This document shows, piece after piece, positions 8,458 to 50,755 of a stretch of 64,000 nt of DNA. Numbering within the stretch: position 1 is the first letter of the stretch; every line of letters starts with the position of its first letter. The notes under the pieces were generated by a model. That model was not told the origin of the DNA. It did no database searches and saw only the letters and a list, made by a program, of their open reading frames with translations. Origin of the DNA: Escherichia coli (GTDB lineage Bacteria > Pseudomonadota > Gammaproteobacteria > Enterobacterales > Enterobacteriaceae); NCBI RefSeq assembly GCF_001677475.2, contig NZ_CP015229.1; one strand, 5' to 3'. Position numbers and translations under genes: made by a program.

Positions 8458-8631
8458 GACAAATGAAATTTTAGTAAACTCTTTAAAATCAATGGGTAAA
8501 ATAATTAACATCAAAAATAACGCGACTTTTATCACTTTTTAGTAAAGTTGCACTGGACAAAGCGTACCACAATTGGTGTACTGGTAACCGACACAGCATT
8601 TGTGTCTATTTTTCATGTAAAGGTAATTTTG

Positions 8632-8841
8632 ATGTCTAAGATTAAAGGTAACGTTAAGTGGTTTAATGAGTCCAAAGGATTCGGTTTCATTACTCCGGAA
8701 GACGGCAGCAAAGACGTGTTCGTACACTTCTCTGCAATCCAGACTAATGGTTTTAAAACTCTTGCTGAAGGTCAGCGCGTAGAGTTCGAAATCACTAACG
8801 GTGCCAAAGGCCCTTCTGCTGCAAACGTAATCGCTCTGTAA
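8632..8841 (+). CDS. cspE: cold-shock-domain protein CspE
   Basis: 69-aa ORF from ATG 8632: [33 protein letters not shown]... (RNP1/RNP2 motifs). Confidence 0.95.
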
Positions 8842-8860
8842 GATACGTCAGCAAGAATTC

Positions 8861-8890
8861 AAAACCCGCTTAATCAGCGGGTTTTTTTTG
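8861..8890. terminator. Rho-independent terminator between convergent cspE and crcB
   Basis: Hairpin cccgct/agcggg (8865..8881) followed by a T8 run; A-run on the other side. Confidence 0.7.
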
Positions 8891-39457: not shown

Positions 39458-39620
39458 AGAAAAAAGAGGGTAGCAGCGTTAACTGCTACCCTCGAAGATT
39501 GTTACCCAGCGTATTGCGGTTTTCAGGCCCGATGGGGAACGACCATCAGGCGTATAGTCTGTCCGTGCTACGTAACAATCGAGAGGGCTGGAATTTCCGC
39601 CCCTGGTTCTTGTAATTAGT
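39458..39620 (-). ncRNA. sroC: SroC-like sRNA in the gltI-gltJ spacer (GcvB sponge in E. coli)
   Basis: 169-bp spacer; minus-strand hairpin gagggtagcag/ctgctaccctc (39466..39493) followed by a U-run ending about 12 nt before the gltJ start; ends set from position in spacer and recalled ~163-nt length. Confidence 0.55.
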
Positions 39621-46678: not shown

Positions 46679-47854
46679 ATGACAAATCAACCAACGGAAA
46701 TTGCCATTGTCGGCGGAGGAATGGTCGGCGGCGCACTGGCGCTGGGACTGGCTCAGCACGGATTTTCGGTAATGGTTATCGAACATGCCCAACCTGCACC
46801 GTTTGTCGCTGACAGCCAGCCGGACGTGCGGATCTCGGCGATTAGTGCGGCTTCGGTATCATTGCTTAAAGGGTTAGGGGTCTGGGATGCAGTACAGGCT
46901 ATGCGTTGCCATCCTTACCGCAGACTGGAAACGTGGGAGTGGGAAACGGCGCATGTGGTGTTTGACGCCGCTGAACTTAAGCTACCGTTGCTTGGCTACA
47001 TGGTGGAAAACACTGTCCTGCAACAGGCGCTGTGGCAGGCGCTGGAAGCGCATCCGAAAGTAACGTTACGTGTGCCAGGCTCGCTGATTGCGCTGCATCG
47101 CCATAATGATCTTCAGGAGCTGGAACTGAAGGGCGGTGAAACGATCCGCGCGAAGCTGGTGATTGGTGCCGACGGCGCAAATTCGCAGGTGCGGCAGATG
47201 GCGGGAATTGGCGTTCATGCCTGGCAGTATGCACAGTCGTGTATGTTGATTAGCGTACAGTGTGAGAACGATCCCGGCGACAGCACCTGGCAGCAATTTA
47301 CCCCGGATGGACCTCGTGCGTTTCTGCCGTTGTTTGATAACTGGGCATCGCTGGTGTGGTATGACTCTCCGGCACGCATTCGCCAGTTGCAGAATATGAA
47401 TATGGCGCAGTTACAGGCGGAAATCGCGAAGCATTTCCCGTCGCGTCTGGGTTACGTGACGCCACTCGCCGCGGGGGCGTTTCCGCTGACGCGCCGCCAT
47501 GCGTTGCAGTATGTGCAACCGGGGCTTGCGCTGGTGGGCGATGCGGCGCACACCATTCATCCGCTGGCGGGGCAGGGGGTGAATCTTGGTTATCGTGATG
47601 TCGATGCCCTGATTGACGTTCTGGTCAACGCTCGCAGCTATGGCGAAGCGTGGGCCAGTTATCCGATCCTCAAGCGTTACCAGATGCGGCGCATGGCGGA
47701 TAACTTCATTATGCAGAGCGGTATGGATCTGTTTTATGCCGGATTCAGCAATAATCTGCCGCCGCTGCGTTTTGTGCGTAATCTTGGTTTGATGGCGGCG
47801 GAGCGTGCTGGCGTGTTGAAACGTCAGGCACTGAAATATGCGTTAGGGTTGTAG
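46679..47854 (+). CDS. ubiF: 2-octaprenyl-3-methyl-6-methoxy-1,4-benzoquinol hydroxylase
   Basis: ORF 46673..47854; 391 aa from MTNQPTEIAIVGGGMVGGALALGL (FAD-binding GxGxxG). Confidence 0.9.
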   Translation: MTNQPTEIAIVGGGMVGGALALGLAQHGFSVMVIEHAQPAPFVADSQPDVRISAISAASVSLLKGLGVWDAVQAMRCHPYRRLETWEWETAHVVFDAAELKLPLLGYMVENTVLQQALWQALEAHPKVTLRVPGSLIALHRHNDLQELELKGGETIRAKLVIGADGANSQVRQMAGIGVHAWQYAQSCMLISVQCENDPGDSTWQQFTPDGPRAFLPLFDNWASLVWYDSPARIRQLQNMNMAQLQAEIAKHFPSRLGYVTPLAAGAFPLTRRHALQYVQPGLALVGDAAHTIHPLAGQGVNLGYRDVDALIDVLVNARSYGEAWASYPILKRYQMRRMADNFIMQSGMDLFYAGFSNNLPPLRFVRNLGLMAAERAGVLKRQALKYALGL

Positions 47855-47869
47855 CCTTACAACATTGCC

Positions 47870-47935
47870 GGATACATGCCAACCGTAGGTCGGATAAGAC
47901 GCGTCAGCGTCGCATCCGACTTTGAAGGATAAGAC
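47870..47935. repeat. REP/BIME-type palindromic repeats downstream of ubiF
   Basis: gtaggtcggataagacgcgtcagcgtcgcatccgac and related units. Confidence 0.55.
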
Positions 47936-47969
47936 GTGTCAACATCGCATTCGACATTGAATATACGCA

Positions 47970-47999
47970 GAAAAGCAAAAAGCTCGCCGAAGCGAGCTT
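47970..47999 (-). terminator. Rho-independent terminator of the tRNA operon
   Basis: Hairpin agctcgccgaagcgagct with a minus-strand U-run (plus-strand aaaagcaaaaa). Confidence 0.7.
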
Positions 48000-48007
48000 T
48001 TTTAATG

Positions 48008-48082
48008 TGGCTGGGGTACGAGGATTCGAACCTCGGAATGCCGGAATCAGAATCCGGTGCCTTACCGCTTGGCGATACCCCA
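48008..48082 (-). tRNA. glnX: tRNA-Gln (anticodon CUG)
   Basis: 75-nt minus-strand sequence UGGGGUAUCGCCAAGCGGUAAGGCACCGGAUUCUGAUUCCGG...CCA; anticodon loop UUCUGAU. Confidence 0.9.
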
Positions 48083-48119
48083 ACTGGGTGCACTTACGAT
48101 GTAAGCGTCTTGAATAAAT

Positions 48120-48194
48120 TGGCTGGGGTACGAGGATTCGAACCTCGGAATGCCGGAATCAGAATCCGGTGCCTTACCGCTTGGCGATACCCCA
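48120..48194 (-). tRNA. glnV: tRNA-Gln (anticodon CUG), tandem copy
   Basis: Identical 75-nt sequence to 48008..48082. Confidence 0.9.
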
Positions 48195-48242
48195 ACAAAT
48201 TGGTTTGTGAATTTGCCGAACTTATTCGACACATTCAGAATT

Positions 48243-48319
48243 TGGTGGCTACGACGGGATTCGAACCTGTGACCCCATCATTATGAGTGATGTGCTCTAA
48301 CCAACTGAGCTACGTAGCC
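48243..48319 (-). tRNA. metU: elongator tRNA-Met (anticodon CAU)
   Basis: 77 nt GGCUACGUAGCUCAGUUGGUUAGAGCACAUCACUCAUAAUGAUGGGGUCACAGGUUCGAAUCCCGUCGUAGCCACCA. Confidence 0.9.
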
Positions 48320-48334
48320 AGATTGTTTCTTCGA

Positions 48335-48409
48335 TGGCTGGGGTACCTGGATTCGAACCAGGGAATGCCGGTATCAAAAACCGGTGCCTTACCGCTTGGC
48401 GATACCCCA
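48335..48409 (-). tRNA. glnW: tRNA-Gln (anticodon UUG)
   Basis: 75 nt; anticodon loop UUUUGAU. Confidence 0.9.
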
Positions 48410-48443
48410 ATAACCGGGCGGTGAACCGCTTACTCGAAGAAGA

Positions 48444-48518
48444 TGGCTGGGGTACCTGGATTCGAACCAGGGAATGCCGGTATCAAAAACCGGTGCCTTA
48501 CCGCTTGGCGATACCCCA
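48444..48518 (-). tRNA. glnU: tRNA-Gln (anticodon UUG), tandem copy
   Basis: Identical 75-nt sequence to 48335..48409. Confidence 0.9.
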
Positions 48519-48541
48519 TCCGTACAACGCTTTCTGGTGAA

Positions 48542-48626
48542 TGGTGCGGGAGGCGAGACTTGAACTCGCACACCTTGCGGCGCCAGAACCTAAATCTGGT
48601 GCGTCTACCAATTTCGCCACTCCCGC
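48542..48626 (-). tRNA. leuW: tRNA-Leu (anticodon UAG)
   Basis: 85 nt GCGGGAGUGGCGAAAUUGGUAGACGCACCAGAUUUAGGUUCUGG... with long variable arm. Confidence 0.9.
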
Positions 48627-48634
48627 AAAAAAGA

Positions 48635-48711
48635 TGGTGGCTACGACGGGATTCGAACCTGTGACCCCATCATTATGAGTGATGTGCTCTAACCAACTGA
48701 GCTACGTAGCC
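48635..48711 (-). tRNA. metT: elongator tRNA-Met (anticodon CAU), second copy
   Basis: Identical 77-nt sequence to 48243..48319. Confidence 0.9.
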
Positions 48712-48743
48712 ATCTTTTTTTCGCGATACCTTATCGGCGTTGC

Positions 48744-48800
48744 GGGGCGCATTATGCGTATAGAGCCTTGCAGCGTCAACCTCTTTTTCAAGGAAAATTG
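48744..48800 (-). promoter_or_regulatory. candidate sigma70 stable-RNA promoter of the tRNA operon
   Basis: Minus strand: -35 TTGACG (complement of 48774..48779), 17-bp spacer, -10 CATAAT (complement of 48751..48756), GC-rich discriminator GCGCCCCGC, AT-rich upstream stretch. Confidence 0.55.
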
Positions 48801-49049
48801 CTCGAAAGTGACTGTTTGGTTAGGTTGCGAACAGCGTGGCGCTATATTCGTCAATTATTGTTTACTTTGTGTTTTTTCCCCACCCTACAGCCATTCTTTT
48901 GTCATACAGGATGAAATTCGGAATTCAACAATAGTGGTGGGAAATTAATCTATGAAGTACTGGCCTACAGTGATGAATTGTCAAACAGTGATGTGGCAAA
49001 CCCTGAACATTTCCTTACTGCATATCAGAATCAACAAGCAGCTCAATAA

Positions 49050-49078
49050 CTAAAACAGCCCCGGATTTCTCCGGGGCA
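49050..49078 (-). terminator. Rho-independent terminator after asnB
   Basis: Hairpin gccccgga/tccggggc (49058..49077) followed on the minus strand by UGUUUUA. Confidence 0.65.
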
Positions 49079-49090
49079 GTACCGCATTTC

Positions 49091-50755
49091 TTACTTATAC
49101 GCCGACTGGTGAACACCAACCGCACGACCAGACGGATCGTCCATTTTCTTGAACGCTTCATCCCACTCAATCGCTTTAGCGGAAGAACACGCGACGGAAG
49201 GACCGCCCGGTACGCACTCTGCGGCGCTCGGAAGCGGGAACAGTTCTTCAAAGATCTCCCGGTACAGATACGCTTCTTTGGACGTCGGCGTGTTGTACGG
49301 GAAGCGGAAGCGGGCAGTTTCCAGCTGTTGATCAGAAACCTGCTGCGCCGCCACTTCTTTCAGGGTATCGATCCAACTGTAACCGACGCCATCGGAGAAC
49401 TGCTCTTTCTGCCGCCAGGCCACGCTTGCAGGCAGATACGCTTCAAAACATTCACGCAGGATGTGTTTTTCCATTTTGCCGTTACCGCACATTTTATCCT
49501 GTGGGTTAATGCGCATCGCCACATCAAGGAATTTTTTGTCGAGGAACGGAACGCGTGCTTCCACGCCCCAGGCTGACATCGCTTTGTTGGCACGCGCGCA
49601 GTCATACATATGCAGGGCCAGCAGTTTACGCACCGTCTCTTCATGCAGTTCTTTGGCATTCGGTGCTTTGTGGAAGTAAAGATAACCGCCAAACACTTCA
49701 TCAGAACCTTCACCGGACAGCACCATTTTAATGCCCATCGCTTTGATCTTACGCGACATTAAATACATCGGTGTTGAAGCGCGAATAGTGGTCACATCAT
49801 AGGTTTCGATGTGGTAAATCACGTCGCGGATGGCGTCCAGACCTTCCTGTACAGTGAAGTGAATTTCATGATGCACAGTGCCCAGATGGTTTGCCACTTC
49901 CTGGGCTGCCTTCAGATCCGGTGAACCCGGCAGACCTACAGCAAAGGAGTGCAGCTGCGGCCACCAGGCTTCAGAGCGTTCCTGATCTTCCACGCGACGG
50001 GCGGCGTATTTCTTGGTGATAGCGGAAATGATTGAGGAATCCAGGCCACCAGATAGCAGCACACCGTAAGGCACATCAGACATCAGATGGCTTTTAACGG
50101 AATCTTCCAGTGCCTGACGCAGCTCGTTTTTGTCGGTCACGTTATCTTTCACTGCATCGTAGTCGAACCAGTCGCGGTGATAATAAGAACGGATTTCGCC
50201 GTCCTGACTCCACAAATAGCTCCCCGCCGGGAACTCTTTAATCGTGCGGCATACCGGCACCAGGGCTTTCATTTCTGAGGCCACATACAGCTGACCATGT
50301 TCGTCATAGCCCATATACAGTGGGATGATCCCCAGATGGTCGCGACCAATCAGATACGCATCTTTTTCGCTGTCGTACAGGGCAAAAGCGAACATGCCCT
50401 GCAAATCGTCCAGAAATTCCGGCCCTTTTTCCTGATACAGCGCGAGGATCACTTCACAGTCAGACCCGGTCTGGAACTGGTAACGATCGCCATATTCAGC
50501 GCGCAATGCCTGGTGGTTGTAGATTTCACCGTTTACTGCCAGCACGTGGGTTTTTTGTTGGTTGTAGAGAGGTTGCGCCCCCGCGTTAACGTCAACAATG
50601 GACAGACGTTCGTGGGCGAGAATGGCGTTATCGCTGGCATAAATACCGGACCAGTCCGGGCCACGATGACGCATCAGGCGTGACAGCTCGAGTGCTTTCT
50701 TGCGCAGCTCAACTGCGTCTGTTTTGATATCGAATACGCCAAAAATTGAACACAT
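49091..50755 (-). CDS. asnB: asparagine synthetase B (glutamine-hydrolysing)
   Basis: ORF 49091..50836; start at internal Met gives 554 aa MCSIFGVFDIKTDAVELRKKALE... (N-terminal Cys nucleophile, SGGLDSS). Confidence 0.95.
   Translation of the reverse strand: MCSIFGVFDIKTDAVELRKKALELSRLMRHRGPDWSGIYASDNAILAHERLSIVDVNAGAQPLYNQQKTHVLAVNGEIYNHQALRAEYGDRYQFQTGSDCEVILALYQEKGPEFLDDLQGMFAFALYDSEKDAYLIGRDHLGIIPLYMGYDEHGQLYVASEMKALVPVCRTIKEFPAGSYLWSQDGEIRSYYHRDWFDYDAVKDNVTDKNELRQALEDSVKSHLMSDVPYGVLLSGGLDSSIISAITKKYAARRVEDQERSEAWWPQLHSFAVGLPGSPDLKAAQEVANHLGTVHHEIHFTVQEGLDAIRDVIYHIETYDVTTIRASTPMYLMSRKIKAMGIKMVLSGEGSDEVFGGYLYFHKAPNAKELHEETVRKLLALHMYDCARANKAMSAWGVEARVPFLDKKFLDVAMRINPQDKMCGNGKMEKHILRECFEAYLPASVAWRQKEQFSDGVGYSWIDTLKEVAAQQVSDQQLETARFRFPYNTPTSKEAYLYREIFEELFPLPSAAECVPGGPSVACSSAKAIEWDEAFKKMDDPSGRAVGVHQSAYK

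Follow-up and report, generated by a model that had tools for sequence, protein, structure and literature searches.

The metT operon of Escherichia coli is already known; decades of work have dealt with its transcript, with how this is processed and with the suppressor alleles supB/supE. The classical example of a tRNA promoter under stringent control is that of tyrT, whose sensitivity to ppGpp has been studied. Using probes for nine positions of the K-12 metT operon, Mohanty and Kushner detected on northern blots a full-length species that comprises the 5′ non-coding region, seven tRNAs and the terminator; a probe to the 5′ non-coding region binds this transcript as well as 5′ intermediates, the smallest of which (leader plus metT) is approximately 125 nt, and in RNase E mutants the full-length species is also seen with a terminator probe (PMC2241853). 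According to the same study, RNase E takes off the terminator and cuts the distal genes apart, and the five upstream tRNAs are separated by RNase P, which is inhibited if the terminator is left on (PMC2241853). Tiefenbacher et al. found the metT transcription unit to be essential in MG1655; the operon holds the only K-12 genes for elongator tRNA-Met, tRNA-Leu(UAG), tRNA-Gln(UUG) and tRNA-Gln(CUG), and a plasmid-borne unit with its natural promoter complements a chromosomal deletion (PMC11480407). The mutation supE44 has been assigned to glnX, having been moved there from glnV (PMC4444293, PMC11148124). Furthermore, when the Salmonella operon was carried on a multicopy plasmid, overexpression impaired growth, and spontaneous recombination between metT and metU produced a collapsed layout (PMC5400242).

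In this study, the window is the whole stretch of DNA that was analysed, with a length of 64 kb. The whole window was scanned for tRNA genes, which were called with ARAGORN and scored against the Rfam family RF00005. ARAGORN found seven tRNA genes, all on the minus strand between 48711 and 48008, and no further tRNA gene in the 64 kb. In transcription order they are as follows.

48635..48711, minus strand: metT, elongator tRNA-Met(CAU), 77 nt with the CCA encoded, identical to metU (ARAGORN, Rfam, string comparison)
48542..48626, minus strand: leuW, tRNA-Leu(UAG), 85 nt (ARAGORN, Rfam)
48444..48518, minus strand: glnU, tRNA-Gln(UUG), 75 nt (ARAGORN, Rfam, string comparison)
48335..48409, minus strand: glnW, tRNA-Gln(UUG), identical to glnU (ARAGORN, Rfam, string comparison)
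48243..48319, minus strand: metU, elongator tRNA-Met(CAU), identical to metT (ARAGORN, Rfam, string comparison)
48120..48194, minus strand: glnV, tRNA-Gln(CUG), 75 nt (ARAGORN, Rfam, string comparison; name from the MG1655 annotation)
48008..48082, minus strand: glnX, tRNA-Gln(CUG), identical to glnV (ARAGORN, Rfam, string comparison, MG1655 annotation)

The order from 5′ to 3′ is therefore Met(CAU)-Leu(UAG)-Gln(UUG)-Gln(UUG)-Met(CAU)-Gln(CUG)-Gln(CUG) by both ARAGORN and Rfam, and all seven genes score between 57.6 and 71.1 bits (E-values from 4e-11 to 7e-15), where the gathering score is 29. By direct string comparison, metT and metU, glnU and glnW, and glnV and glnX are 100% identical within each pair; this identity stops 0–2 nt from the gene borders, and the Gln(UUG) and Gln(CUG) genes differ at 7 of 75 positions. 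An earlier note on this DNA, made from the letters alone, had named seven tRNA genes in this order with these anticodons and had placed three identical pairs within about 700 bp. The calls made here, the MG1655 annotation and the synteny bear out the names, order and anticodons, the string comparison bears out the pairs, and the seven genes span 704 bp. The term "tandem pairs" needs one correction, as metT and metU form a direct repeat spaced by 392 bp, with leuW-glnU-glnW lying between the two copies. The note gave no strand, and the operon can now be placed on the minus strand.

A gene with a CAU anticodon can encode the elongator tRNA-Met, the initiator or the lysidine-modified Ile2 species, and these are told apart by the 1:72 pair and the G-C pairs of the anticodon stem. 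Both genes of this locus have a G1-C72 pair and an anticodon stem CAUCA/UGAUG without GGG/CCC. The 1:72 pair is thus of the Watson-Crick type, the base of the anticodon stem has no run of three G-C pairs, and both genes have the sequence of metT and metU of K-12. RefSeq annotates both as tRNA-Met. These features agree with the published statement that metT and metU are identical elongator tRNA-Met genes (PMC6265465), and we conclude, as had been proposed from the letters, that both Met genes are elongator genes, neither initiator nor lysidine-Ile2.

The most distal gene, glnX, is the copy that bears supE44 in K-12 laboratory strains. In strain THB42-F4 (NZ_CP110814.1; 459–533 of locus L002), the Gln gene at the glnX position has a CTA anticodon, which is the supE44 amber suppressor; ARAGORN reports it as "Pyl", and RefSeq leaves it without annotation because of this anticodon. 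THB42-F4 is evidently a K-12 laboratory recipient. We also observed a 17-nt inverted repeat around metT (48621–48637 and 48710–48726), in which the A-run of the leader (CGCGAAAAAAAGAU) is complementary to the T-run of the metT-leuW spacer (AUCUUUUUUGCG). The leader, metT and spacer RNA is predicted to form a helix that lengthens the acceptor stem (−37.1 kcal/mol, z = −2.75). Among strains, the leader run varies from A7 to A9 and the metT-leuW spacer from 8 to 10 nt, without strict co-variation: the two lengths change together between the window and K-12 and fail to do so in AH02 and E2348/69, and we make no claim of co-variation. Two open reading frames that overlie the tRNA genes on the plus strand, 47936–48286 and 48679–48948, were regarded as spurious. 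A Plastid-ycf2 match antisense to the tRNAs was rejected as far below its Rfam gathering score, as were rsmX, isrB and istR matches, which cover the terminator hairpin only.

The flanks identify the locus. The cluster is bordered upstream by asnB on the same strand and on the other side by the convergent ubiF, as judged from the open reading frames and the K-12 annotation, and the gene order miaB-ubiF-seven tRNAs-asnB-nagD is common to the window and a K-12 MG1655 derivative. In the MG1655 record NC_000913.3 the corresponding positions bear the names glnX, glnV, metU and glnW. Over the 1101 bp compared, the window and the K-12 derivative differ by 15 substitutions or indels. These are confined to REP elements, to the spacers between genes, to the A-run of the leader and to the flanks, and 0 of the 15 lie in the tRNA genes, the promoter hexamers, the discriminator or the stem of the terminator. 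Two of these differences shorten the leader A-run by one A and the metT-leuW spacer by one T relative to K-12. Because of this near-identity and synteny, the window is a chromosome of E. coli or of a very close relative. We hold it as almost certain that the feature is the chromosomal metT operon of E. coli, with a sigma-70 promoter, a single transcript and repeats that recombine; nothing contradicts the identification as this operon. Elsewhere in the window, Rfam reports at gathering level the sRNA sroC (39458–39620, minus strand, 174.8 bits) and a cspA-type thermoregulator 5′ UTR (8531–8889, plus strand, 123 bits), both of which we take to belong to this part of the K-12 chromosomal map.

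Our survey of the locus covered 5,426 complete E. coli genomes, with the 1101-bp locus as the query. In 5278 of 5426 genomes (97.3%), 80% or more of the query aligned at a single place, and the full-length alignments listed are 98.3–99.6% identical. Among the listed records, one Leu, two Met and four Gln genes together with ubiF are annotated in nearly all, the exception being the strain with the unannotated supE-type distal Gln gene. The segment of leuW and its downstream spacer is present in 5413 of the 5426 genomes, at 99% identity or above in 5412 genomes.

The elements that would control the transcription of the cluster are the following.

48774..48779, minus strand: −35 hexamer TTGACG (promoter scan; the same in 13 other E. 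coli loci)
48751..48756, minus strand: −10 hexamer CATAAT, after a 17-nt spacer from the −35 (promoter scan; unchanged in 13 loci)
48742..48750, minus strand: GC-rich discriminator GCGCCCCGC (from the sequence; the same 9-mer follows the −10 of K-12 tyrT)
48712..48741, minus strand: 5′ leader of about 30–32 nt with an A7 run at its end (from the sequence)
47968..48002, minus strand: Rho-independent terminator AAAAAGCUCGC-UUCG-GCGAGCUUUUU followed by GCUUUUCUG (hairpin scan, folding)
49058..49077, minus strand: terminator-like hairpin GCCCCGGAGAAATCCGGGGC followed by TGTTTTAGTT, just past the asnB stop (hairpin scan)

The promoter TTGACG-17-CATAAT, called near-consensus in the earlier note, matches 10 of 12 consensus positions and lies approximately 30 nt ahead of metT on the tRNA strand. 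However, the 1.9-kb region scanned contains 1 such motif against 1.9 expected in shuffled sequences, so its count is not significant and the motif alone proves nothing. The promoter reading is instead backed by its position, its conservation and the literature. From the −35 through the leader, the sequence is unchanged in 13 other E. coli loci, including those of K-12, E2348/69 and 536, and the A7–A9 run is the sole variation. The putative transcription start lies at about 48741–48744 on the minus strand. If transcription begins right after the −10, one expects a leader-metT intermediate of about 115–117 nt, including the 8-nt spacer, in rough agreement with the approximately 125 nt seen in K-12.

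Between the −10 and the putative start lies the GC-rich discriminator GCGCCCCGC, an element sought in stable-RNA promoters. Its identity with that of tyrT suggests that ppGpp and DksA may down-regulate the metT promoter, which would then track growth rate as other stable-RNA promoters do. The label "stringent-type" given to this promoter before our analysis accordingly describes a sequence resemblance and not a measurement; among the papers that our literature search covered, we found no ppGpp or growth-rate measurement for the metT promoter.

At the other end of the operon, the terminator hairpin (48002–47977) starts 5 nt after glnX and consists of an 11-bp stem, a UUCG loop and a U-tract. 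It folds at −17.9 kcal/mol (z = −4.2), and 0 of 200 shuffled sequences fold as well. Across the 13 loci the stem is unchanged, and the loop varies once, in strain 536. A stable GC-containing hairpin with an immediate U-tract is thus predicted to act as a Rho-independent terminator, in keeping with the clean terminator that had been noted here before. On the plus strand the element reads A5-stem-loop-stem-T6 (window 47977–48003), and because of this symmetry it may be bidirectional and could also stop transcription of the convergent ubiF, whose open reading frame ends at 47854 and whose stop is 123 nt from the operon terminator. The interval between the ubiF stop and this terminator contains REP/BIME-type palindromes (47860–47962) with a 35-nt direct repeat, 47892–47926 and 47927–47961, whose copies are 86% identical. 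The REP region accounts for 4 of the 15 differences from K-12, and its Rfam match to naRNA4 is below threshold (30.9 bits vs 59.5) and was rejected. On the asnB side, the open reading frame ends at 49091, and the hairpin beyond it would keep asnB transcription from reading through into the tRNA promoter.

A sigma-70 promoter about 30 nt before metT would thus give one transcript that carries seven tRNAs and ends at the Rho-independent terminator about 5 nt past glnX. The sequence elements were found here, and the RNA itself is known from K-12, where the northern blots agree with the single-promoter, single-terminator operon proposed earlier (PMC2241853). Processing and essentiality are likewise transferred from the K-12 literature by near-identity. 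By this transfer, RNase E would take off the terminator and cut within the metU-glnV-glnX part, RNase P would separate the upstream tRNAs and generate mature 5′ ends, and 3′ exonucleases would trim back to the encoded CCA.

The three identical pairs of 75–77 nt are direct repeats, and unequal homologous recombination between them may occasionally remove or add a unit and produce copy-number variants at low frequency. To look for such variants, we built synthetic junction sequences for unequal crossing-over between identical copies and searched them in the 5,426 complete genomes. A record passed if at least 80% of the query was covered, a criterion that was unusable as it stood for the single-Gln(UUG) and Met-unit duplication queries. 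The layouts found are as follows.

Three or more Gln(CUG) genes: 29 records passed, 27 of them clean and full-length (about 28 genomes); M23917 verified, with eight genes
One Gln(CUG) gene: 152 genomes; E2348/69 and ETEC4075 (the rank-92 match) verified
Three or more Gln(UUG) genes: 35 genomes; XL1-Blue CP081007 verified
One Gln(UUG) gene: about 39 genomes, with bounds of 25 and 91; 731 passed and 692 were discounted
Collapse between metT and metU, with loss of leuW-glnU-glnW: 8 genomes, among them HS13-1, strain 536 and TUM1223
Repeated Met-Leu-Gln unit: at least 7 genomes, among them GF8

For the single-Gln(UUG) query, the 692 discounted records lie in the band of 95–99% identity. All seven rows sampled from this band were non-colinear joins of two pieces, and the genome inspected among them is canonical in layout; because such joins in canonical genomes typify the band, we put the true number at about 39. 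The Met-unit duplication query passed 5283 records, again with non-colinear joins, and only the 7 full-length matches in one piece were accepted. For the single-Gln(CUG) query, the suspicion that a two-piece match was an artefact was rejected, since ETEC4075, at about rank 92, has a true six-gene locus, and the count of 152 therefore stands. The layouts of M23917, E2348/69, HS30-1, ETEC4075, GF8 and XL1-Blue were verified. Natural variants with the junctions expected from unequal crossing-over were thus found as full-length matches. Allowing for overlap of the lists, roughly 4–5% of assemblies depart from the seven-gene layout, and well over 90% keep it.

Several individual records can be described. 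GF8 (NZ_CP172212.1; 690–1738 of locus L012) has 11 genes in the arrangement (Met-Leu-Gln(UUG))x3-Met-Gln(CUG), with a 283-bp unit in tandem. The collapsed layout, Met-Gln(-Gln) without leuW, glnU and glnW, occurs in 536 (NC_008253.1), HS13-1, TUM1223, MC1061, GF47, IAL7250, AVS0947 and IPCEC48, and so includes both a laboratory strain, MC1061, and the Sanger-era reference genome of 536. In 13 of the 5426 assemblies leuW is absent altogether. The XL1-Blue assemblies CP081007.1 and CP132550.1 (loci L013 and L014) have 3 and 2 Gln(UUG) genes, respectively. Six laboratory strains with closely numbered accessions, including BL21(DE3), Stbl4, XL10-Gold, TOP10 and Origami2, all have 3 Gln(UUG) genes, and one chicken-meat strain series is the source of many odd layouts.

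It could be argued that the seven-gene layout is fixed in nature and that the variation arises entirely from assembly or cloning. The 8 collapses and the 13 leuW-less assemblies would lose sole-copy genes of a unit that is essential in K-12, the two XL1-Blue assemblies disagree, the run of laboratory strains and the chicken-meat series point the same way, and plasmid clones of the operon delete spontaneously (PMC5400242). The same plasmid deletion offers a plausible route to cloning artefacts in shotgun libraries. Nevertheless, we consider so sweeping an explanation unlikely. A single Gln(CUG) gene is found in 152 genomes and on several spacer haplotypes, and this layout recurs in independent records of the same strains (E2348/69 twice, NC_011601.1 and LT827011.1, and BH100 three times) as well as in E24377A. 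Moreover, the loss of one Gln(CUG) gene costs no decoding capacity and is biologically plausible. For these reasons the single-Gln(CUG) layout is probably real, whereas the 8 collapsed and 13 leuW-less assemblies are probably products of assembly or cloning; K-12 essentiality, the known route of deletion during cloning and the discordant assemblies of one strain make an artefact far more likely in their case. That these assemblies, including those of uropathogenic 536 and MC1061, are correct is very improbable. If they were, some E. coli would have no gene for tRNA-Gln(UUG) or tRNA-Leu(UAG), and CAA and CUA would have to be read in an unrecognised way or by tRNAs too diverged for megablast. 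Part of the variation is thus probably artefactual, and our counts are upper bounds. The earlier suggestion that the identical copies are a substrate for recombination and vary in number is upheld by the survey and by the published deletion (PMC5400242), with the qualification that the variants are rare; the variants are observed, and the mechanism would follow from their junctions and that one plasmid event.

Doubts of another kind concern how the cluster is transcribed and where it came from. If the tRNAs were mainly transcribed by read-through from asnB, which lies upstream on the same strand, TTGACG/CATAAT would be a chance match, as the motif count, no higher than in shuffled sequence, would allow. 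Against this, a GC-rich hairpin with a T-tract comes right after the asnB stop, and the −35, −10 and discriminator stay unchanged in 13 diverse strains in which the neighbouring spacers vary. The discriminator is that of the tyrT promoter, the 5′ intermediate of about 125 nt in K-12 fits a start downstream of the −10 rather than an RNA of asnB length (PMC2241853), and the plasmid with the natural promoter complements the chromosomal deletion (PMC11480407). We therefore give read-through as the main source very little credence and retain the sigma-70 promoter. Even less probable is an origin of the cluster by horizontal transfer or from a phage tRNA array, or the decay of some of its duplicates into pseudogenes. 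It is true that phages and genomic islands commonly bear dense tRNA arrays with repeated genes. However, in essentially all 5426 E. coli genomes this locus is flanked by ubiF and asnB, both core genes, its duplicates match each other and their K-12 counterparts at 100% identity, all seven score far above the Rfam threshold, and the transcription unit is essential in K-12. Conservation and synteny refute an origin of this type, and a resident operon of intact genes is the reading that we keep.

As a discovery, this analysis matters little, but the variant frequencies and a warning about collapsed assemblies are mildly useful. Approximately 3% of complete E. coli genomes have one tRNA-Gln(CUG) gene, and smaller fractions have other counts. 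Models of codon usage or tRNA adaptation should therefore not treat the dosage of these tRNA genes as constant. In addition, a handful of public assemblies, including the widely used 536 reference, appear to be collapsed at this locus and so seem to be without essential tRNAs; automated comparisons of tRNA repertoires should allow for this.

Compared with the metT operon of K-12, the locus has the same seven genes in the same order and on the same strand relative to asnB and ubiF, with the same gene sequences, promoter hexamers, discriminator and terminator stem, and its 15 substitutions or indels in 1101 bp are confined to spacers, REP elements and flanks. It shares with the K-12 tyrT promoter the 9-nt discriminator GCGCCCCGC right after the −10, followed by a similar leader motif CCGATAAGG, but the hexamers differ, being TTTACA/TATGAT in tyrT and TTGACG/CATAAT here. 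The metT operon of Salmonella enterica Typhimurium has the same composition of seven genes (PMC5400242). The deletion in plasmid pUST314 has the layout metT/U-glnV-glnX that we find in eight E. coli assemblies, that of 536 among them; however, that deletion arose on a multicopy plasmid under selection against overexpression of tRNA-Gln(UUG), not on the chromosome (PMC5400242). The units argQZYV-serV, lysT-valT-lysW-valZ-lysYZQ and metZWV resemble the metT unit in that each has identical isoacceptor genes and some are essential (PMC11480407), although they encode other tRNA species. Among such tandem tRNA operons, the metT unit is unusual in that it holds every gene for four anticodons.
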